64,000 nt of DNA from an uncultured Candidatus Saccharibacteria bacterium. Lineage in GTDB: Bacteria > Patescibacteriota > Minisyncoccia > Phycocordibacterales > CAIZLB01. Each line of letters starts with the position of its first letter. Position 1 is the stretch's first letter. The notes below the pieces were generated by a model. It was given only the letters and a program-made list of their open reading frames with translations. It was not told where the DNA came from and did not search any database. This document shows positions 17,911 through 60,013 of this stretch, one piece after another. The position numbers were made by a program, and so were the translations under genes. The stretch lies in NCBI GenBank assembly GCA_964627085.1, contig CAZVIP010000002.1, positions 4,416-68,415 on the forward strand. The letters run 5' to 3'.

Positions 17911-18582
17911 CTATTTCTGTGCTTTCACGAAAGCTGGAGCGATTTCGCCGGCCTCTGACACATGCTTTGAAACTGCAAGATTAGCAATGGTTGCATAGCT
18001 GATTGCGATAGCGCCACAAACTACATATGTGAAAAATAAATCACCGAAAAATGAATTTCTGAGGAATGGTAGTCCTGCAATATATGATGCGCCAAGTCCG
18101 TTTATATTTTTTGGATAAAGAGTTCCGAAAAACCACACAGCCCAATTAGTGAGGACAAAAAATGAGATTGTACTTAGTGTTGATGCGATAGTTGTTTTTG
18201 CAAAGAAAGCCATTAAGGTGTTTTTTGTATTTTTTCCTGAGATATTTCTTTTGCTTACTGGTTCGTTTGACAATGCATCTGCTGGCTGACCAGACACTCT
18301 ATTGGCGATATGACTTGATATATATACAGCAAGAACCATCCCGACATATACACTTGTCATAATAAATGGATTATAAAATCCGATAAAAATGTCACTAAGG
18401 AGCATGGCGATCAAAGGCACAATAATTGCTAATTTACCACGTAGATACATTCCTGAGGCAATCGCAACAGCGCCCGCTGCTGTGACATTCCATACATGTG
18501 GCATGAGCCTTGTCACAAATGCAACAATAATTAATGCGAGTGATGTGATTATTTCTTTTCTGTATTTCATCATGTAGTTCAT
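17911..18582 (-). CDS. polytopic membrane protein, ECF-transporter S-component-like (candidate cobalamin-specific)
   Basis: 6 hydrophobic segments, about 220 aa, MPHVWNVTAAGAVAIASG motif resembling S-component N-termini; 32 bp downstream of the surface protein gene on the same strand. Confidence 0.45.
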   Translation of the reverse strand: MNYMMKYRKEIITSLALIIVAFVTRLMPHVWNVTAAGAVAIASGMYLRGKLAIIVPLIAMLLSDIFIGFYNPFIMTSVYVGMVLAVYISSHIANRVSGQPADALSNEPVSKRNISGKNTKNTLMAFFAKTTIASTLSTISFFVLTNWAVWFFGTLYPKNINGLGASYIAGLPFLRNSFFGDLFFTYVVCGAIAISYATIANLAVSKHVSEAGEIAPAFVKAQK

Positions 18583-18614
18583 AGTGTTTTTCTGTAATAT
18601 TCTCTTTATACCAT

Positions 18615-21104
18615 TTAATTTCGACTCTTATTATAACCTATATAACCCAAGCCCAAAAGCGCCAAAAACATTATAAATAACAAGGCTTTTGCAGCGCTAT
18701 TTCTAGCAATAAAGTCCAGGATACTTGAGCTTTCAGCGATTTGATTAATTTGACCCAAACCAGTTGCATCACCGCGCTCCACAAGATCACTGCTCTGAGG
18801 ACCGACACCCTGATTTAAGTTTGAACCATCCCGCTGATCTGAAGTCCGAGCGAGCTGTCTGTTATTTGATTCGCTGTTTACACCCGCAGTATCAAATTGA
18901 CCCGAAACTTCAGAACCTCTTGTGCCTGTTGTGCGCAAAGGTGTTGTAGTAGATGCACCAGTTTGTGCATTGCCGTTAAACAATGACGGACTTGTTGATG
19001 CTGTAGTTGTCGCGGACGAAGGACTTGATGTACCCGTTCCATTTGAACTGTTTTGGACACCAGCCTCAACGCCGTTATTCGCTGAATTTGCTGATTCATT
19101 CGTACCTGTTTGCTTGGCAAATGGGACCATAATACTTCCCCATGTTTTACCTAAATACCCCGGGACCGCATATGAAGTGGCCCAAAGTCTTGAATTATTA
19201 TCAAGTGAACTTTCGAGACCTCCGTCATTTGTTGATTGTTTTGCACCGAGATAATCATTTGGATTTTTTCCTGACACCGTCCAATTACGTGGTGATTCTC
19301 CGAGTGCTGAAATAGCCTGCATCACCCATGCTGTTGCAAAAGTATTTTGCCATCCGCCGTCTGATTCTTGCGTCGACTTGAGATATTGTTTTGCGCGGGC
19401 AAGTGCAGACGATACATTTGTTTCATTCGCGAAAGGAGCGAGCACGGATATTGCAGCTGCTGTCACGTCGACGCTTTCGAAGGCACCTGAGCTTTGCTGT
19501 TTTGACAAAATATATGAAATTGATTTTGAGATTTCAGGATCCGAAGTAGTGTATCCGGCTTTTGACAATACGAGCACACTGAATATGTCATCATTTACAA
19601 GCTCTGTACTACCGAATTGATTTCCATCAAAACTTTTTTTAATTTGTTCTATATAATTTTTTGATGTTCCATTATATGGATTCACTCCGAGCGACATGAG
19701 CGACATGGCTCGACGTGCATAATCGAGTGGATTTGAACTATTTATTTGATTATTGATTAAATAATTTTTAACAGGGTTTGTGCCAATACCACCGATGCCT
19801 CCATATGATGCAAAAGCAATTGCTGCCCAGTCCGCATAGAGTGCTGATGTATATGCGCCGCCATTTTCTTTTGTCAGGATAAAAGAGATTGCATTCTCCA
19901 CACTAAATTGATTTCCAATAACCCCACTACCCTGGCCTGCACCTCCGGAATTATTACCAGTACCTGACATATCTGTCGTGCTTGTCGCTGTTGATGTTGC
20001 TAAATAGCCTTCTGGTGCCTCGCTTATATCGACAACTGCAAAGTCATATAGTGGATAGTAATATTCTTCACTAATGCCGATGCCGTATGCGCCAGATGTA
20101 GCCACTGTCAGCGAAGCATATCCATCGGAAGAAGTTGTTGTAGCATTCACAATTTCTGGACTCCATGGATTTGATGGATCTGGTCTTGTTGCACCAACTG
20201 TTACACCAGCAAGCGGTGACCATGCATTTGTTCTATATTCATAATTCTCGGCTCTGACCAGAAAAGGAATTGTTGTATATGCAGTCTCGGTTGGAAGGAC
20301 GATGCGACTCTTTGTCCCAAAATATAAATACACATCATCGCCATCATGGAGAATATAATCATCAACGCCAACAAATGGATATGTATCATTAACTACAAAC
20401 TGCCAATTATAGCAAGCATTTACCGTTGTACTTGTTGCAATATTTTGAGTCTGAATATTTAGACAATTGATAATATATGAATCAAATGAATCGAAATACG
20501 AAAGATCGGTCAGCTCAAAATTATCTGACAATTTATCAGCTTCGATAATAGCCGCAAGCGTTGACGAACCCTGTATTTTTCGCACAACTGAAGCATTATC
20601 AATTACATCAATATCCCTCTGTGCGATTGTCACCTGTCTCTCAAAGACAATGTCATTGTTATAGCGGACATGGACCATTACCTTTTGTTCTGTTTGCTCT
20701 GCACTTGATGATGCAGTGCTTGTTGCAGTGTTTTCTTCTTGGATAAGGTTTGTTTGGACACTTTGCTGTGCCACAGGAGCAGGTTGTTCTTCTTGTGTCG
20801 ATGTTGACGTTTCTGTGTCCGTACCAGTTTGTATTTCAGTTTGTGTTTGTGTTTGTGTTTGTGTTTCTTCGCCCGGACCAGCTGTTACCTCAGTTGGCGT
20901 TTCAGTGACCACCATCGGCAGACTTTCGTCAGTTACCTCATCTGCAAATGCAATGTGTGCACTTTTTGTTGCCAAGACATTTCCGAAGGTAAAAACTAAG
21001 ACATAAAATAATAATAGTGAACTTGCTGTAATTTTCTTGAGAAATATTTGATATTTTTCACCTGCATATTTTTCTGATTTTGTTGGCGCGCTATTCTTTC
21101 TCAT
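18615..21104 (-). CDS. large cell-surface protein with a DUF4430-like module and a prenyltransferase/squalene-cyclase-type alpha/alpha-toroid repeat domain
   Basis: N-terminal signal/TM; TQTQTQ linker; W.FVVND..PFVGVDDYILHDGDDVYLYFG (DUF4430-like); repeats SKQQSSGAFES and STQESDGGWQNTFATAWVMQAI (QxxxGGW); C-terminal hydrophobic anchor. Confidence 0.7.
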   Translation of the reverse strand: MRKNSAPTKSEKYAGEKYQIFLKKITASSLLLFYVLVFTFGNVLATKSAHIAFADEVTDESLPMVVTETPTEVTAGPGEETQTQTQTQTEIQTGTDTETSTSTQEEQPAPVAQQSVQTNLIQEENTATSTASSSAEQTEQKVMVHVRYNNDIVFERQVTIAQRDIDVIDNASVVRKIQGSSTLAAIIEADKLSDNFELTDLSYFDSFDSYIINCLNIQTQNIATSTTVNACYNWQFVVNDTYPFVGVDDYILHDGDDVYLYFGTKSRIVLPTETAYTTIPFLVRAENYEYRTNAWSPLAGVTVGATRPDPSNPWSPEIVNATTTSSDGYASLTVATSGAYGIGISEEYYYPLYDFAVVDISEAPEGYLATSTATSTTDMSGTGNNSGGAGQGSGVIGNQFSVENAISFILTKENGGAYTSALYADWAAIAFASYGGIGGIGTNPVKNYLINNQINSSNPLDYARRAMSLMSLGVNPYNGTSKNYIEQIKKSFDGNQFGSTELVNDDIFSVLVLSKAGYTTSDPEISKSISYILSKQQSSGAFESVDVTAAAISVLAPFANETNVSSALARAKQYLKSTQESDGGWQNTFATAWVMQAISALGESPRNWTVSGKNPNDYLGAKQSTNDGGLESSLDNNSRLWATSYAVPGYLGKTWGSIMVPFAKQTGTNESANSANNGVEAGVQNSSNGTGTSSPSSATTTASTSPSLFNGNAQTGASTTTPLRTTGTRGSEVSGQFDTAGVNSESNNRQLARTSDQRDGSNLNQGVGPQSSDLVERGDATGLGQINQIAESSSILDFIARNSAAKALLFIMFLALLGLGYIGYNKSRN
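20824..20867. repeat. hexanucleotide microsatellite (GTTTGT)n inside the surface-protein CDS
   Basis: gtttgtgtttgtgtttgtgtttgtgttt encodes the (TQ)n linker on the minus strand. Confidence 0.8.
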
Positions 21105-21105
21105 G

Positions 21106-21834
21106 CTATTCGTTTGTTAATTCAAATCTGATAATGTCTCCGCTTTTTGGAATATAGTTAGAAATTCCAACATTTCCCCTTTGACTGTTCACACGATAAA
21201 ACCAATATAGATTATTTTTTGGCGATTCTTTTATGCCATTTATTGAGTCTATATAGTAACCAAGTCCATCAAATTCTTTTTGGGTAAAAGAGAGCACACC
21301 TTCATCGCTTAGTTTTTTTGTGAGATCATATACAGTTCCACCTATCTTGAGTTTTGTATCTATGCGCAAGGCGATTGTTTTTGTATTCGGACCAGCTGTC
21401 GAGACTCCTATTTTTTGCGCATTTTCAGCACTGACGAAAACCTCAAAAGAAACCGGCATTTGCTCAGCCACCTGGCCCCCTTGAACCCCAGCTGTATTTG
21501 CATTCATCTGTGCGATAGAGGTTGCGGTATAGGTCGCACTTCCCGGCGCATTCAAGTACATATCCATTTCCGCAGACCTATCTTTTGATACTTGTTTTGA
21601 GCGTAGGCTACTTAGAGATTTTGATTCACTCTGACCAGTCTGACCACTTTCACTAATCTGACTTAGGATTTCCTTGTCGAAAGAATTATTGTCTCTCACC
21701 TCCCTAACATTTCGTGAATATTCAGAATATAAAGATGCGAATACAGTCAGTGCAACACAAAAAGCAATAAGGAAAATATACTTAGCACTTTTTTTGATCG
21801 ACAGCCCTATAGATGATTGTATTTTTTGATTCAT
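21106..21834 (-). CDS. secreted DUF4430 domain protein (transcobalamin beta-domain-like)
   Basis: Signal peptide/TM; C-terminal SINGIKESPKNNLYWFYRVNSQRGNVGISNYIPKSGDIIRFELT matches the DUF4430 pattern SGW.Y.VNG...L.dGD.I.f.Y; stop overlaps the next gene start; true start is the ATG 6 nt inside the listed TTG. Confidence 0.65.
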   Translation of the reverse strand: MNQKIQSSIGLSIKKSAKYIFLIAFCVALTVFASLYSEYSRNVREVRDNNSFDKEILSQISESGQTGQSESKSLSSLRSKQVSKDRSAEMDMYLNAPGSATYTATSIAQMNANTAGVQGGQVAEQMPVSFEVFVSAENAQKIGVSTAGPNTKTIALRIDTKLKIGGTVYDLTKKLSDEGVLSFTQKEFDGLGYYIDSINGIKESPKNNLYWFYRVNSQRGNVGISNYIPKSGDIIRFELTNE

Positions 21835-21840
21835 AAACAA

Positions 21841-21863
21841 AAAAACTTCTGCGAGTCAGAAGG
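21841..21863 (-). terminator. intrinsic terminator/attenuator hairpin 7 nt upstream of the DUF4430 start codon
   Basis: Minus strand ccttctgac-tcg-cagaag followed by a 7-T run; candidate expression platform of the upstream riboswitch. Confidence 0.5.
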
Positions 21864-21989
21864 TTGTCGTGCTTTATTCATGTTGTATAGTTTTCACTTA
21901 AACATGTGTATGGATTTCTGTACCACATGCGCTCGGCCTTGAATATAATACCTGAAAAGATATTTGATTCACCGATTCGGAAACTATAT

Positions 21990-22160
21990 GTATGTATATA
22001 AAGACGTTCTGCTCGAAACTTACAAGTCATTTAAAGATCGGACTTATCATCTGCAATAATTGCGATGCATTACCGTTGCGGCACAGCGAAGGATTTTCAC
22101 CTTACTTCCACATTCAGCATTCTTTGTTCTGCTGACGCTCATTTCCCGCCCAAGAATCTG
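21990..22160 (-). promoter_or_regulatory. cobalamin (B12) riboswitch-like leader
   Basis: Minus strand GGAAGUAAGGUGAAAAUCCUUCGCUGUGCCGCAACGGUAAUG matches the conserved core GGGAAnnnGGUGnAAnUCCnnnGCnGnCCCGCaACgGUAA; a partial B12-box-like AAGUCCGAUC lies downstream; sits in the 5' leader of the DUF4430 operon. Confidence 0.5.
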
Positions 22161-22322
22161 TTCAAGATCTTGCAGTACAAGGGAAATAAGTAAATGACCT
22201 TCGCATATTCTATGCAAAGGTCATTTACTTGTAAACATATACAATTGGTTTTTTTGTGTTGCGATGAGGTCTTCTTGTGTGTATTTCAGCAAAACCAACT
22301 TCTCCATCCTCAATCCGCCAGA

Positions 22323-52345: not shown

Positions 52346-55300
52346 CTACAACACTTTCTTTGCTAAAAGCTCATTTATCTTTAATCGTGTTTTTGGACCA
52401 ACTATTCCATATCCTTGTTCTCTTGGACTCTTGACTACACCAAATTTTAGCTGGAATTTCTGAATAGCGCCCTTGGTTGCAGGGCCGAAGAAATCTGTCT
52501 CCTTTCCTGGTGACCCTACTCCTGCCGAAGCAATCTTTAGATCAGGAAAAGCATTAAGAAGTCTTTGTATAATCTTAATTTCTGGTGAATTCTTCCCTTG
52601 TGACTGGAGACTTGTGATGACGGCTCCAGATCCGATAATATTTCCAATACCACCTTGGTTCTGTCCGTTGTTCGCAGCTGTTGGATTTTGCGGAGACACC
52701 ACAGCCTTATTACCAAATATAGCCTGTAACTCTGAACTTGAAAGAGTTGATGCAGAAACCGCACTTCGTGATCCTGGTACAGGTGTATTAACGACTGGAT
52801 CCGTAGACACACTACCTGGTAATGCAGCAGTTGTGAAAACAGCATCACTTGTTGTCGAAATATTTTGAAGAAGTCTCGAAGCGAGTATACGATAATGATA
52901 TGTAGTCGAAGGAGAAAGACCAGAAAGCGATACAGAGTGAGTAGTATGACCAGTCGAAGTAGAAACAGTGCCATATGAAGTTGTCAGACCATATGCAATT
53001 GATGATGACGCATTGATATCAGTAGTCCAATTGATAGTAGCTGTTGTTGTACTTACATCAATACTTCCTCCAGTGATCATCGGGAGAATACCGTCGACAA
53101 CCAAGTTTTTACTCGCAGCAAGATTTGTGGCCGGTGCAAAGTTCGACATACTATTTCCATTTTGGTCTGAAATAGTACCTGATATTGATAGTGTAGTCAG
53201 ATCTGCTGATGTGTCCCCTCCTTGGACCACATAGTCGCATGTCGCGGTAGTAGAATTAGATACCGTAAATACACATGTCCGATCAGTAGTACCAGTCTCA
53301 AGTGTCACTGTGACATCACCTGTCGATGTCACTGCCTCAGAAAATCCTATGTCAATATCAATTGTATCCCCAATCTTATAGGTACCATTCGTAGCACTAG
53401 ATGAGACCGTGCTAATTGTCGGGGCAGTAAAATCTGTATTTATAGTAAATGTACGAGCTGTTGATGTAGAAGTATTACCCAATGAATCAGTTACACTCAC
53501 ATACATATTGTATGTACCATCAGAAAGACCGCTAAATGTATTACGTACACCATATGAAGTAGTTCGCCATACAGACCAATAATCAGCTTCGGTTGCTACA
53601 TATAGATAATCTCCAGTACCATCCCATGTTATACCTTCTGGCATTTCAAACAAGAAGTTACTACCACTATCTGCACGGGCATAAACTTTCTTTTCTCTCA
53701 AAACAGAACACGATGATGTACTTGTAACATCGATTTCAAACATTTTATCTGCTATATGAGAAAGAACATAGAGATGATTGTTGGTAGGTTCAAAATACAA
53801 ACCAGATATGTCGGAATATCCAGGACTCGCTGGGAATAGTGATGCATCATTCAATGTAAGTGTTGCAAAATTAATATTAGTACATATTTGTGTACTAGCT
53901 GCACTGTTGGTAGAAATGTTACCTGGTACAACTTCGTACAATTTTGGAGTTCCAGGCACACCTGCACTACTCTCTTGTCCTTCTGCAGCAGCAAAGAAAT
54001 ATCCATTATTTGAATTATACGCCACACCTTCCAATCCACTATTTGTGACAGCTCCACTACTAATACCAGTTGAATAATATTTAGTTCGGTTTACAGTCGC
54101 AGCACCTGTCGAGTGAATAACAACTTGAAATACCTGATGATTCAATGTGTTGACGTCCTCAGTCGAAATCAAGAATGTATGATCATATCCTCCAACTGTA
54201 GTAGAAGCCACACTTGAAACCAATGTTATATCTTCGGCATCATTACAAGCAGAACAGGTTATTGTTCTCACATTCACACCGGCTCGCGTCACTTCATGGA
54301 TTACGTTTTGATTATTGTGAATTGTGAACAATGTATCTGTAGTTGGCACATATGCAACACCAGATAAGTCCCCGGTTATAGAAAGATTTTGTTTGTTTGT
54401 AGTTGTAGAGAGCGCAGAGATATCATAGTTACCATATCTTGTTGATGTGGTTGCTTGCGAAACAAGAGTACCACCCGATGTCTCAAGTCGAAATGTAAAA
54501 TATGAAGGCGTTATTGATGAACCAAGTGTCGTAGAAGCATACCCTGTAACAGATCCAGATGTTGTAGAAAAACCATTACCGATCATCGGACTTGTGAAGG
54601 TCATCAAGTACGACGGTGTCGTAGTCGCCTGACTAGAGGTAGTACTTTCACTGACACCATTCAAACCAGCCACTCTAAAGTTATACACAGAACTGTTTGT
54701 AAGACCTGTCACCATAGTAGTTGTTCCAGTCGACACACCATCTGCAAATGTAGTCCAAGATGAATCCGACGAGAGCTTGTATTCTATTTTATAATCCGTA
54801 ACATCTCCTGAAGAAGCAGTCCATTGTAGGTAGGCTCGATTCTCATACGGCAAAGCTGTCAATCCGGTAGGTTGACCCGGAGCAGTCGGAGCACCTGTAG
54901 TGAGGGTCAAGTTAGACGACGTTGCGATATTTCCCAAAGTATCACGAGATACGATTTGAAAATTATATGTTATTCCACCAGTAAGACCTGTCAGAACTAC
55001 ACTGTGGCTCGTTGTCGCTGCGGCCAATGATGTTGAAGCCGACCCGTAACTTGTAGTGAGTCCGTAATTGATAGATGAGGTCGCCAATTCATCTGTCGTC
55101 CATGTTATGGTCGCAGTAGTTTGTGACGTAGAAGATGCAATTGCTGATATAACAGGAGATGTTACATCTGGCTGGCTCTCTACAGTTCCGTAGGTATTAA
55201 ATGTATCTTGTCCAGAACTATATGATGCACTAATCCAATCAGCAGATCGAGCAACATTGGATACACGCAATTCATCCATTTGCCCATCTAGAAAACCATT

Positions 55301-56371
55301 ATTTAAAGCATTGTTTCGTCCAATATTGAGATTAACTGCAGTTGACTCCATACCACAAGCAGTAGTACTCGCCGTTGCCTGTACCACACCATTAACATAG
55401 AGCTTCATAGCATTTGATGTATTGTCATCCCAAGTAGCTACGACGTGATACCACCCTGCTGCAGCACTGACAACAGAATCACTTCTAATAATCGGAGAAT
55501 TTGCAGAAGGAAGTGTACACTCAATCTGGTATGTTATTTTTTCAATATTTGTTGAACCCGAAGTAGTATCAACATATACACGAAGCTCTCCATCATTAGC
55601 ACCTGATTTTACTCTTGAGAATAAATATCTATTACTCGCTGACACCGCAACGGAATCTATGTCAAACCAAAATTCAGCCGACCCATCAGGCATAGTTGTA
55701 GTTGGCCCTTCTAGCCCCTCATCAACATACTGACTTGTACCATTAAAATCTAATCCGCTACCGAATTTCCCAGTAACTGAATTTCCTGAGGCCATGGTAG
55801 ATGTAGCTGTTCCGTCCTTGTTGTTTGCAGAACTGTCTTGAAATTGCGGAGCTGATCCTGCAGGATTTTCAGACAAGTGCTGAACCATAGAATAACTAGA
55901 ATCCCAAACCCCAGTCGTAGTCGCATTACTGACAGTTGCGGGATTGTTGTAATACATATAGATATAATCGGCATCTGACGCTGCGACATTTGGCACCTTT
56001 GCCCAAATTACAGAAGTGCCAGATGTATCCCATTTTTCAATTTCATGGCTCAAAACAGTAGATCCACCCACATCAACAAATCGGACATCAGCCCCAGCAG
56101 GAAGAAAATCGGCATATGTCACACGAGAAGAATTGAGACTGACTAATATAGGAAAATCAGTGAGCGATCCACGTGCGGCATTTGAAAAAGTAATCTTGAT
56201 TCTCTTTTGCCATGCAGAGTTCCACCACGCATCATCAGCGAGCGCTGTTTTAGGTGTAAACATTCCTGAGATAGATGCAAAACATATAACAAGCAACAAG
56301 AATGCTGCGGCTAATATATTTACTGAGGAAAGGATTTTGTGTGATGGATTGGAAAGGGTTTTTTTATTCAT
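52346..56371 (-). CDS. giant (1341 aa) secreted surface protein: LamG-like jelly-roll, multiple FN3-like repeats, C-terminal peptidoglycan-binding domain
   Basis: Signal/TM; LYVNGVVQATAS..LDGQMDELRVSNVARSADW (LamG-like); repeated ATITWTTDE..SINYGLTTSYG modules; C-terminal IKIIQRLLNAFPDL..FGPATKGAIQKFQ. Confidence 0.75.
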   Translation of the reverse strand: MNKKTLSNPSHKILSSVNILAAAFLLLVICFASISGMFTPKTALADDAWWNSAWQKRIKITFSNAARGSLTDFPILVSLNSSRVTYADFLPAGADVRFVDVGGSTVLSHEIEKWDTSGTSVIWAKVPNVAASDADYIYMYYNNPATVSNATTTGVWDSSYSMVQHLSENPAGSAPQFQDSSANNKDGTATSTMASGNSVTGKFGSGLDFNGTSQYVDEGLEGPTTTMPDGSAEFWFDIDSVAVSASNRYLFSRVKSGANDGELRVYVDTTSGSTNIEKITYQIECTLPSANSPIIRSDSVVSAAAGWYHVVATWDDNTSNAMKLYVNGVVQATASTTACGMESTAVNLNIGRNNALNNGFLDGQMDELRVSNVARSADWISASYSSGQDTFNTYGTVESQPDVTSPVISAIASSTSQTTATITWTTDELATSSINYGLTTSYGSASTSLAAATTSHSVVLTGLTGGITYNFQIVSRDTLGNIATSSNLTLTTGAPTAPGQPTGLTALPYENRAYLQWTASSGDVTDYKIEYKLSSDSSWTTFADGVSTGTTTMVTGLTNSSVYNFRVAGLNGVSESTTSSQATTTPSYLMTFTSPMIGNGFSTTSGSVTGYASTTLGSSITPSYFTFRLETSGGTLVSQATTSTRYGNYDISALSTTTNKQNLSITGDLSGVAYVPTTDTLFTIHNNQNVIHEVTRAGVNVRTITCSACNDAEDITLVSSVASTTVGGYDHTFLISTEDVNTLNHQVFQVVIHSTGAATVNRTKYYSTGISSGAVTNSGLEGVAYNSNNGYFFAAAEGQESSAGVPGTPKLYEVVPGNISTNSAASTQICTNINFATLTLNDASLFPASPGYSDISGLYFEPTNNHLYVLSHIADKMFEIDVTSTSSCSVLREKKVYARADSGSNFLFEMPEGITWDGTGDYLYVATEADYWSVWRTTSYGVRNTFSGLSDGTYNMYVSVTDSLGNTSTSTARTFTINTDFTAPTISTVSSSATNGTYKIGDTIDIDIGFSEAVTSTGDVTVTLETGTTDRTCVFTVSNSTTATCDYVVQGGDTSADLTTLSISGTISDQNGNSMSNFAPATNLAASKNLVVDGILPMITGGSIDVSTTTATINWTTDINASSSIAYGLTTSYGTVSTSTGHTTHSVSLSGLSPSTTYHYRILASRLLQNISTTSDAVFTTAALPGSVSTDPVVNTPVPGSRSAVSASTLSSSELQAIFGNKAVVSPQNPTAANNGQNQGGIGNIIGSGAVITSLQSQGKNSPEIKIIQRLLNAFPDLKIASAGVGSPGKETDFFGPATKGAIQKFQLKFGVVKSPREQGYGIVGPKTRLKINELLAKKVL

Positions 56372-58896: not shown

Positions 58897-58930
58897 AAAA
58901 GCCGAGCACTGTGTGCTGGCTTTTTTCTTT
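58897..58930. terminator. hairpin gccgagcac-tgt-gtgctggc with a T run (bidirectional)
   Basis: Inverted repeat flanked by A and T runs, upstream of the RhuM-like gene. Confidence 0.45.
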
Positions 58931-59029
58931 TGCTGCTCCGGGTGTTGGATTATGTTAGAACCATATTACAACATATCCACTGAAATATTTAATATTGATT
59001 ACAGAATGAAGGGTGATAAAATTTTACTA

Positions 59030-60013
59030 ATGACAAAAGCAATACCAAAAAATAATATTGTTATTTACCAAGCAAAATCCGGTGCAATTGAGCTTAAGGG
59101 AGATTTTAAACATGAGACCGTATGGGCTACACAAGCACAGATTGCTGAGGCTTTTGATGTAAATGTTCGTACAATTAACGAGCACATTACAAATATTTAT
59201 AAAATAAACGAGCTTAACAAAGACTCAACTATCCGGAATTTCCGGATAGTTCAAAAAGAAGGCAAAAGAGAGGTAGAACGAGAGATTGGTCATTATAACC
59301 TAGACATGATTCTCTCTGTTGGATATCGAGTCAATTCAAAGAATGCTACAAAATTCCGACAATGGGCAACAAAAACTCTCAAATCACACATTGTAGACGG
59401 CTATACCATAAACCCGAACCGTATCGAAAAGAACTACGAAGCATTTTTATCTGCTGTTGAAAAAGTTAAACTACTCATTCCACAAGATACCATAGTCACA
59501 ACCAACGACACCCTTGAACTTGTTAAGCTCTTTGCAAACACTTGGTTTTCTCTTGATGCATATGACAAATCTGAATTCACTAAAAAGAACCTAACAAAAA
59601 AGCAGATTAAGATTAGTGGCCAAGAATTAACTTCAGCTATTCAAGAACTAAAGCAAGAGCTACTCGTAAAAGGTGAAGCTACAGACTTATTTGCAAACGA
59701 AAGACAAGCGGACAGTATTGAAGGAATAGTCGGAAATGTATTCCAATCATTTGGAGGTAAAAATGTCTATGAAAATATTGAGGAAAAAGCTGCTCACCTA
59801 CTTTACTTCATCGTAAAGAACCATCCATTTTCTGATGGAAATAAGAGAAGTGGAGCTTTTGCATTTGTGTGGTTCCTAAAGAAAGCGAAGATCCTTGATA
59901 CCAATAAAATAACACCTGAAGCACTAACTGCACTCACCTTGCTTGTTGCAGAAAGTGATCCGAAAGAAAAGGAACAGGTTACTGGGCTTATTGTAATGTT
60001 GTTGGGAAAGTAA
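59030..60013 (+). CDS. RhuM-family protein with C-terminal Fic/Doc-type domain
   Basis: N-terminal IVIYQAKSGAIELKGDFKHETVWATQAQIAEAFDV and HYNLDMILSVGYRVNSKNATKFRQWATK (RhuM signature); C-terminal HPFSDGNKRSGAF (Doc-type Fic motif HxFx(D/N)GNKR). Confidence 0.7.
   Translation: MTKAIPKNNIVIYQAKSGAIELKGDFKHETVWATQAQIAEAFDVNVRTINEHITNIYKINELNKDSTIRNFRIVQKEGKREVEREIGHYNLDMILSVGYRVNSKNATKFRQWATKTLKSHIVDGYTINPNRIEKNYEAFLSAVEKVKLLIPQDTIVTTNDTLELVKLFANTWFSLDAYDKSEFTKKNLTKKQIKISGQELTSAIQELKQELLVKGEATDLFANERQADSIEGIVGNVFQSFGGKNVYENIEEKAAHLLYFIVKNHPFSDGNKRSGAFAFVWFLKKAKILDTNKITPEALTALTLLVAESDPKEKEQVTGLIVMLLGK

Follow-up and report, generated by a model that had tools for sequence, protein, structure and literature searches.

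Genes and proteins of the locus

The subject of this account is a compact operon behind a riboswitch-like leader, located in a 64,000-nucleotide stretch of contig CAZVIP010000002.1 (hereafter the window; G+C content 39%) from a Patescibacterium. It forms a single transcription unit on the minus strand (17911-22235), in which a leader of 366 nucleotides (nt) is followed by three closely packed genes, designated A (21106-21834, minus strand; 242 amino acids, aa), B (18615-21104, minus strand; 829 aa), and C (17911-18582, minus strand; 223 aa). A preliminary description, made from the sequence of the region up to 22160, had depicted it as a riboswitch-controlled, split transcobalamin-like module for the capture of vitamin B12. 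The features listed therein were all recovered on the minus strand where they had been placed, as was the 32-nt gap between genes B and C. The stop and start codons of genes A and B, however, do not overlap as had been claimed, being arranged as TAG-C-ATG with a 1-nt spacer, and a promoter-like site (22235-22207) and a possible 5' strand of the riboswitch helix P1 (22200-22191) fall beyond the former limit. The locus recurs in at least six metagenome assemblies, with an identical gene C translation in all six. The host is assigned to the Patescibacteria by the ProRS encoded in the window, which shares about 79% identity with proteins labelled Candidatus Paceibacterota, Paceibacter, or Parcubacteria.

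In the gene A product, a low-complexity linker connects an N-terminal transmembrane anchor to a DUF4430 domain at the C-terminus (residues 169-242), which scores 52.9 bits in Pfam (E = 5e-14; cut-off 23.8). Because its single transmembrane helix is N-terminal (residues 15-39), the product is probably membrane-anchored and not freely secreted; of the earlier label of a secreted DUF4430 protein, the domain is confirmed and the secretion improbable. When gene A and 22 orthologues in the same position were combined in a profile, matches were obtained to the beta-domains of intrinsic factor (E = 2.3e-7), haptocorrin (7e-7), and transcobalamin (1.4e-4), as well as to structures of the transcobalamin beta-domain on its own and of DUF4430 from Ruminococcus. 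A search of the Protein Data Bank (PDB) with the single gene A sequence gave a best transcobalamin beta-domain match that was non-significant (E = 0.57). Judged by the family profile, DUF4430 is homologous to the beta-domains of all three carriers, which bears out the correspondence drawn in the preliminary description. No paper on the family (PF14478) was found in the literature searched, and Bacteroides BtuH, considered as a DUF4430 carrier, was dropped, the literature giving DUF4465 instead.

Gene C matches a single Pfam family, DUF6580 (PF20221; E = 1.6e-34), on which no paper was found in the literature searched. Its structural model (predicted local distance difference test, pLDDT, 85.6; predicted template-modelling score, pTM, 0.80) adopts the six-helix fold of the S-components of energy-coupling factor (ECF) transporters, as the earlier reading had anticipated. 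The ten best PDB matches are all S-components (target-normalised template-modelling scores of 0.55-0.69), headed by two B12-bound structures of BtuM. Sequence comparisons were less telling: a single-sequence PDB search with gene C found nothing, BtuM chains were absent among the PDB sequence matches at E <= 10, and one DUF6580 homologue matched ECF-ribofla_trS at E = 0.003, below the cut-off. The DUF6580 profile did match the 182-aa membrane-protein chain of 6FNP (ECF-CbrT; the chain is inferred to be CbrT) at E = 5.5e-4, over transmembrane helices 1-3 only. DUF6580 contains no invariant or near-invariant Cys, the sole Cys of gene C (C189) not being conserved, and H29 is nearly invariant. Between its helices 3 and 4, gene C has an insertion of some 40 residues (~95-135; window 18180-18300) that is poorly modelled (pLDDT 61-65) and absent from all 22 aligned homologues.

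The further suggestion that the locus feeds an energy-coupled transporter was not borne out. No ATP-binding cassette (ABC) ATPase was found in the 64-kb window, where the ABC signature LSGG[QE] occurs in none of the open reading frames (ORFs) of at least 100 aa, and jackhmmer detected none within 8 kb of DUF6580 at any Patescibacterial locus examined. Gene C is put forward here as a proposed corrinoid transporter with an S-component fold.

Gene B encodes a surface protein in which a signal or transmembrane segment and a T/E/Q-rich spacer precede a DUF4430 beta-domain (residues ~141-265; 20310-20684, minus strand), an immunoglobulin (Ig)-like beta-domain, a Gly/Ser linker, and an alpha/alpha toroid (residues ~402-658; 19131-19901, minus strand). 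The toroid is followed by a stalk of about 140 residues rich in S, G, T, and N, a C-terminal transmembrane anchor (residues 798-825; 18630-18713, minus strand), and the basic tail NKSRN, in keeping with the anchored 829-aa surface protein described before. The beta-domain, delimited on the model, scores 25.6 bits in Pfam, above the cut-off of 23.8 that gene A also passes, and hhalign relates it to the small DUF4430 family of gene A with a probability of 97.5%; it holds the only two Cys residues of gene B (214 and 231). The combination of a DUF4430 domain with a toroid in gene B is thereby supported. The core is modelled at pLDDT 90.7, with a disordered linker. Elsewhere in gene B, Pfam places SQHop_cyclase_C above its cut-off (28.5 bits) and Cobalamin_bind (PF01122) below (17.6 bits against 25). 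By sequence, the toroid is no closer to transcobalamin than to terpene cyclases.

Two enzyme- or complement-like identities for the toroid were considered. A class II terpene cyclase would carry the motif DxDD, which is absent: the family consensus svDlTAAA aligns with DVDDTA of squalene-hopene cyclase, the corresponding window residues being SVDVTA, and the only match to the DxDD pattern in gene B is DGDD within the DUF4430 domain. The thioester-containing domains of complement and alpha-2-macroglobulin were ranked first by Foldseek on the three-domain gene B model because those proteins pair Ig-like domains with a toroid, but this membership was rejected, their thioester motif CGEQ being likewise absent.

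The leader and its riboswitch

The operon is preceded by greA (22787-22323), whose end is a strong hairpin (22230-22188). A promoter-like site, TTTACA and TAGAAT separated by a 17-nt spacer (22207-22235, minus strand), overlaps this hairpin; it is a consensus match only (10 of 12 positions), the number of promoter-like sites in the region equalling the shuffle expectation, and transcription would start near 22200 if it is used.

Rfam at curated thresholds reported no riboswitch in the whole window, only a tRNA. In a permissive scan, RF01482, the adenosylcobalamin (AdoCbl) riboswitch of Rfam clan CL00101, was found at 22032-22112 on the minus strand, where the preliminary description had placed a cobalamin-riboswitch core. 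The match scores 44.2 bits (E = 7.9e-7), below the curated gathering threshold of 50 bits, and covers only model positions 25-96 of 149. The core motif GGTGAAAATCC...GCCGCAACGGTAA lies at 22101-22070, and the core elements UGGAAG, the GGUGAAAAUCC hairpin, GCCGCAACGGU, and AAGUCNGNUCUU are all present. The match extends to sequence and structure over these model positions, and CGAGCA, the motif of the 3'-hairpin loop of RF01482, is also present in the window.

The identity of the riboswitch is settled by the orthologous operons (cited here by locus number), since they carry RF01482 above the cut-off. Full-length matches of 51.4-56.4 bits stand immediately upstream of the first gene in L008, L009, L011, L013, and L074, and 35 invariant core columns are common to the window and these five leaders. 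The leader of L089 likewise has a full-length match above the cut-off (53.6 bits), and the same core, with insertions that defeat Rfam, recurs in L010, L020, L031, L053, L025, L036, and L088. On this comparative evidence the aptamer of the window is classed as AdoCbl type, closest to RF01482. The 'variant riboswitch class' suggested earlier finds no case, because AAGUCCGAUCUUU in the window matches the consensus AAGUCAGGUCUUU of RF01482, and the orthologous leaders above the cut-off have almost the same core.

A long-range P1 helix may join AGGUCAUUUA (22191-22200, minus strand), at the predicted 5' end of the transcript, to UAAAUGACUU (22024-22033, minus strand), which begins flush with the core end in the manner of the P1 3' strand of relatives; this assignment is tentative. 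The 8-mer TAAATGAC of the 5' arm of the greA hairpin (22227-22220) recurs at 22033-22026, within the putative P1 3' strand.

Beyond the aptamer, the conserved 3' element UUUCGAGCAGAACGUC (22003-22018, minus strand) is the equivalent of the RF01482 3'-hairpin loop and the proposed antiterminator strand; the 13 leaders examined all have it 3' of their aptamer, in the form CGAGCAG(G)AA or CGAGCAAAG. An intrinsic terminator follows at 21839-21865 on the minus strand, comprising the hairpin CTTCTG-ACTCG-CAGAAG (21862-21846) and a run of seven T residues (21845-21839). The hairpin and U-tract noted before the start codon are indeed present, the U-run ending 4 nt before the gene A ATG (21834); an alternative TTG start (21840) falls within the run. 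The 5' arm and loop of the terminator are complementary to the 3' element, and the duplex between UUUCGAGCAGAACGUC (22018-22003) and AACCUUCUGACUCGCAGAA (21865-21847) has a predicted energy of -11.9 kcal/mol, with the U-run beginning 1 nt past the target. The spacer between element and terminator (21866-22002) contains a hairpin, CAUGUG...CACAUG, and a 16-codon ORF that is probably fortuitous.

P1 and the expression platform were compared pairwise across leaders; an RNAalifold consensus for 11 leaders aligned with MAFFT contained just eight pairs, variable insertions having disrupted the alignment. In all 12 leaders compared, that of the window among them, the 3' element finds its best downstream duplex partner in the 5' arm and loop of a hairpin situated just before the start codon. 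A U-run of at least five residues follows within 1-14 nt in 11 of the 12, the run being shorter in L025. The two sides have changed together: the window pairs CAGAAC in the element with UUCUG in the arm, where relatives have CAGGAA with UUCCUG or similar. Given this complementarity in all 12 leaders, a transcriptional OFF switch is indicated. Without ligand, the 3' element (22018-22003) would pair with the terminator 5' arm and the three genes would be transcribed; with ligand bound, the aptamer would capture the element, the terminator (21862-21839) would form, and transcription would end 4 nt before gene A.

DUF6580 loci in other genomes

The DUF6580 family comprises about 4,900 clusters (50% identity) at E <= 1e-10 and was found in Patescibacteria, Bacteroidota, Ignavibacteria, Acidobacteriota, Verrucomicrobiota, Elusimicrobiota, and others. 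One genome per species was scanned, yielding at least 585 DUF6580 loci, of which the best 80 were examined. A small DUF4430 gene adjoins DUF6580 at 30 of these 80 loci and a toroid protein is present at 12, whereby DUF4430 and DUF6580 constitute the constant pair and the toroid is an add-on. In the split forms L008, L010, and L013, a toroid protein devoid of a beta-domain (by a profile derived from the DUF4430 domain of gene B) accompanies a separate beta protein, while other loci have forms like that of the window. The pair may also be covalently joined: P0308 (337 aa) is a natural fusion of DUF6580, a seventh transmembrane helix, and DUF4430, equivalent to genes C and A in one chain, with its beta-domain outside the cell.

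Same-strand upstream aptamer evidence was obtained at 35 or more of the 80 loci. This count is a lower bound, 3 of 11 motif-negative loci still being Rfam-positive and 9 loci having less than 1.5 kb of upstream sequence; an Rfam scan of 35 DUF6580 loci gave matches at curated thresholds in 18. In Acidobacteriota, Verrucomicrobiota, and Ignavibacteria, the operon consists, in this order, of a riboswitch, a TonB-dependent receptor (BtuB-like), a PF01902 protein, and DUF6580, with the PF01902 gene coming first in the Ignavibacterium locus L057. Two Levybacteria (L017 and L079) have a B12 aptamer motif, then DUF6580, then a PduO-type cobalamin adenosyltransferase. By sequence and gene order, DUF6580 is thus placed in the B12 regulon across phyla, and the B12-riboswitch association expected of homologous loci was found, RF01482 standing above cut-off in front of orthologous operons.

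Several observations on the relatives may be set beside these. PF01902 (Diphthami_syn_2, ATP-pyrophosphatase-like) is regularly present in the cobalamin-riboswitch operons with a BtuB-like receptor and DUF6580 (L054, 7167-7862; L073, 7295-8008; L057, 4854-5642). The closest relatives have an extra ORF of 125-130 aa, with no Pfam match, between the toroid gene and DUF6580 (L087, 2508-2885; L088, 6024-6416), which is absent from the window. In P0228 (372 aa), the C-terminal end and stalk of a toroid protein are joined to DUF6580, either as a real fusion or as a gene-calling artefact. L089 (4267-7826) and L090 have a riboswitch-DUF4430-toroid operon without an adjacent DUF6580, the next gene being Sua5/YrdC-like, and therefore the capture proteins can be encoded apart from the transporter. 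A Bacteroidota metagenome-assembled genome (L026, 7733-8631) has a cobalamin riboswitch on either side of DUF6580, the second leading into a TonB-dependent receptor gene.

As for the surroundings, the ORF downstream of the operon (17665-17000, minus strand; 221 aa) has its own promoter-like site and is followed by mraZ and then rsmH. It is without a Pfam or NCBIfam match, and its position is kept in the metagenome copies, where it is called at 211 or 221 aa. Elsewhere in the window are a 1341-aa surface protein with DUF2341, Laminin_G_3, fn3, SdiA-regulated, and peptidoglycan-binding domains (52346-56371, minus strand) and a RhuM and Fic protein (58913-60013, plus strand). A Shapirobacteria 16S rRNA gene at L022 (4303-4540) contains a 155-nt insertion relative to the bacterial small-subunit model.

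Proposed function and known systems

What the analysis shows directly are conserved RNA motifs, the identities and folds of the domains, synteny, an association with riboswitches, and one natural fusion. Together they point to an operon with which a Patescibacterium (Paceibacteria/Parcubacteria-like) scavenges corrinoid (B12), which B12 represses via a transcription-terminating riboswitch and which works by capture, relay, and import, a reading to which we assign a probability of roughly 0.78. Within it we infer which ligand is bound, which way the switch works, what each protein binds, in what order the corrinoid is handed over, and where the energy comes from. Gene B, on its long membrane-anchored low-complexity stalk, would display its DUF4430 domain and toroid away from the cell and capture the corrinoid; the membrane-proximal gene A would take it over, or bind corrinoid independently, and hand it to gene C, which would move it across the membrane either alone, as proposed for BtuM, or with an ECF module encoded elsewhere. 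DUF4430 and DUF6580 would be the core of this device, the counterpart of Lactobacillus cbrS-cbrT, and the toroid protein an optional third part.

A number of observations weigh against this reading and are best considered with the alternatives to which they lend themselves. No ECF A or T genes were found in the window or near Patescibacterial DUF6580, and the window contains no B12-dependent enzyme. The domain order of gene B (beta, Ig-like, linker, alpha) is the reverse of that in transcobalamin, and its pTM of 0.57 makes the model uninformative on the pairing of beta-domain and toroid. The toroid family profile retrieved no cobalamin carrier and matched squalene-hopene cyclase (9e-14), its closest relative by sequence; a role of the toroid in B12 binding rests on context only. 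B12 might, accordingly, be handled by DUF4430 and DUF6580 alone, with the toroid protein serving as an adhesin, a glycan or lipid binder, or an enzyme-like toroid, which would suit its rarity among DUF6580 loci, the sub-threshold Cobalamin_bind score of gene B, and the first rank of complement and alpha-2-macroglobulin domains in Foldseek. Against such a separate role, wherever upstream sequence is available the gene for the toroid protein forms part of a B12-riboswitch operon, placed between DUF4430 and DUF6580 or beside DUF4430; of 38 family members, 28 have a DUF4430 domain of their own and 22 match Cobalamin_bind (best E = 6e-8); and both the cyclase and the thioester motif are missing. 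We consider a B12-unrelated toroid unlikely.

The second difficulty concerns the riboswitch of the window itself, which could be decaying and no longer regulating, leaving the operon constitutive or otherwise controlled. Its RF01482 match is below the cut-off and local only; no P1 flush with the core exists in the window, whereas all eight relatives tested have one of 8-10 bp; and the candidate long-range P1 (22200-22191 with 22033-22024), a 10-bp duplex of -9.7 kcal/mol, is equalled by 21% of shuffles. Relative to RF01482, about 80 nt are inserted 5' of the core and 137 nt before the terminator, the distance from element to terminator being 19-35 nt in relatives. The element-terminator duplexes have modest z-scores across leaders (-1.1 to -4.2), that of the window being only moderately better than shuffles (z = -1.7), and the minimum free energy fold of the entire leader is not better than shuffles (z = -1.45). 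Decay nonetheless appears improbable when set against the retention of 35 of 35 invariant core columns, the continued complementarity of element and terminator with its lineage-specific matching change, an intact terminator whose place next to the start codon is shared with L088 and other relatives, and the recurrence of the locus, aptamer core motif included, in at least five further metagenome assemblies.

A third possibility, that DUF6580 imports not intact B12 but a precursor of it or a part (cobinamide or a lower ligand, for instance dimethylbenzimidazole) or serves corrinoid trafficking and not import, arises from acidobacterial loci, which have a complete BtuFCD-like system under a separate riboswitch besides BtuB-PF01902-DUF6580. 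Because some genomes with DUF6580 (L054) possess this second system, DUF6580 may carry another corrinoid or a precursor, and CbrT also carries cobinamide (PMC5997447). PduO, which adjoins DUF6580, acts on complete cobalamin. Moreover, DUF4430 corresponds to the domain that touches the nucleotide side of intact cobalamin in transcobalamin, and Patescibacteria would not be expected to remodel corrinoids or complete them. The precursor alternative is, on balance, rather improbable still. Lastly, an operon importing heme or another non-corrin tetrapyrrole, with DUF4430 and toroid as heme scavengers as proposed for the homologous lsa1836-1840 system of L. sakei, whose beta-like Lsa1839, alpha-like Lsa1840, and EcfS/AA'/T were tied experimentally to heme content and whose S-component, according to the authors, is without residues known to bind cobalamin (bioRxiv 10.1101/864751), is very improbable here: corrinoids are favoured because cobalamin riboswitches lead this operon and its orthologues, DUF6580 co-occurs with BtuB-like receptors and the PduO adenosyltransferase, and CbrT uptake is not competed by hemin (PMC5997447).

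Of greatest value as a lead is DUF6580, a widespread candidate for corrinoid transport, a B12 assignment for this common domain of unknown function being directly testable. Most bacteria require B12 yet cannot make it. The inner-membrane B12 importer is still unknown for many lineages (PMC6072759). The locus and its relatives suggest how ultra-small symbiotic Patescibacteria acquire B12, and the riboswitch ties bacterial DUF4430 and toroid proteins to cobalamin. To our knowledge, heme uptake in L. sakei is the only published experimental claim for such DUF4430 and toroid proteins; in the literature searched, no paper was found on transcobalamin-like proteins with a riboswitch or on cobalamin riboswitches in Patescibacteria.

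Among the systems with which the locus may be compared, Bacteroides BtuG, a beta-propeller, and BtuH are functional analogues. They too belong to riboswitch-controlled loci with surface binders ahead of a membrane transporter, yet their folds are unrelated, BtuH being DUF4465, and they are outer-membrane lipoproteins feeding BtuB (PMC8941943, PMC10404256). BtuM of Thiobacillus denitrificans (8C7P, 8OVV), the best structural match of gene C, shares the S-component fold; it has been proposed to transport B12 and occurs with BtuB but no ECF module (PMC6072759), and DUF6580 likewise adjoins BtuB-like genes in diderms. The two differ in that no sequence similarity is detectable, the Cys axial ligand of BtuM has no conserved counterpart in DUF6580, and Patescibacteria, too, commonly have DUF6580, there paired with DUF4430.

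A closer parallel in gene content is offered by L. delbrueckii, in which CbrT is encoded in an nrdJ-cbrS-cbrT-pduO cluster (PDB 6FNP; PMC5997447). CbrS is very likely a DUF4430 protein, because the L. rhamnosus gene adjoining rtpR is DUF4430. As in the window, a small S-component-type B12 membrane protein then lies beside an extracytoplasmic accessory gene, and relatives of the window locus likewise continue with pduO. Gene C nevertheless belongs to another Pfam family, its link to CbrT being weak and restricted to the first three transmembrane helices; the window has a B12 riboswitch, none being mentioned for cbrS-cbrT (PMC5997447), and, compared with ECF-CbrT, no ECF module was found and an extra 829-aa toroid protein is present.

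The idea of a split transcobalamin, central to the preliminary description, is already in print for L. sakei, alongside the precedents of cbrS-cbrT and the L. rhamnosus DUF4430-rtpR pair. The lsa1836-1840 operon encodes EcfS/AA'/T and exported proteins modelled as split transcobalamin beta (Lsa1839) and alpha (Lsa1840) beside the S-component, proposed as an extracellular scavenger feeding the transporter (bioRxiv 10.1101/864751), the very arrangement envisaged in the earlier account; the likeness is one of architecture. The differences lie in the EcfAA' and EcfT genes and heme assignment of L. sakei, as opposed to a locus without ECF A/T and with a cobalamin riboswitch pointing to corrinoids; in gene B, where the alpha protein is extended by a beta-domain, an Ig-like domain, and a membrane anchor at the C-terminus; and in the host, a Patescibacterium. 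What is new here is thus the combination of a cobalamin riboswitch, a DUF6580 transporter, no ECF genes found, an anchored protein of reverse beta-Ig-alpha order, and a Patescibacterial host.

Transcobalamin, intrinsic factor, and haptocorrin (PF01122 with PF14478) have the homologous beta-domain and the alpha6/alpha6 toroid also seen in the window, and in both cases the two domain types occur in one extracellular B12-dedicated system. The animal carriers are arranged alpha-then-beta in one chain, whereas gene B has the reverse order with an Ig-like domain between, a second and separate beta-domain protein is present, and the window proteins are membrane-anchored; the toroid of gene B, below the PF01122 cut-off, is closer in sequence to terpene cyclases, and a pairing of the domains around B12 is putative. 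Tentatively, and a little short of an even chance in our estimation, DUF6580 may be a large family of corrinoid importers with an S-component fold and without a dedicated ECF module, served in bacteria lacking an outer membrane by extracellular transcobalamin-type domains (always beta, sometimes toroid), the two-domain carriers of animals having descended from, or having a mirror image in, a modular capture relay of bacteria whose beta and alpha parts are split, reverse-fused, or fused to the transporter. Such naturally split, permuted, and transporter-fused transcobalamin architectures would help to ask how the animal carriers evolved and which domain suffices for binding.

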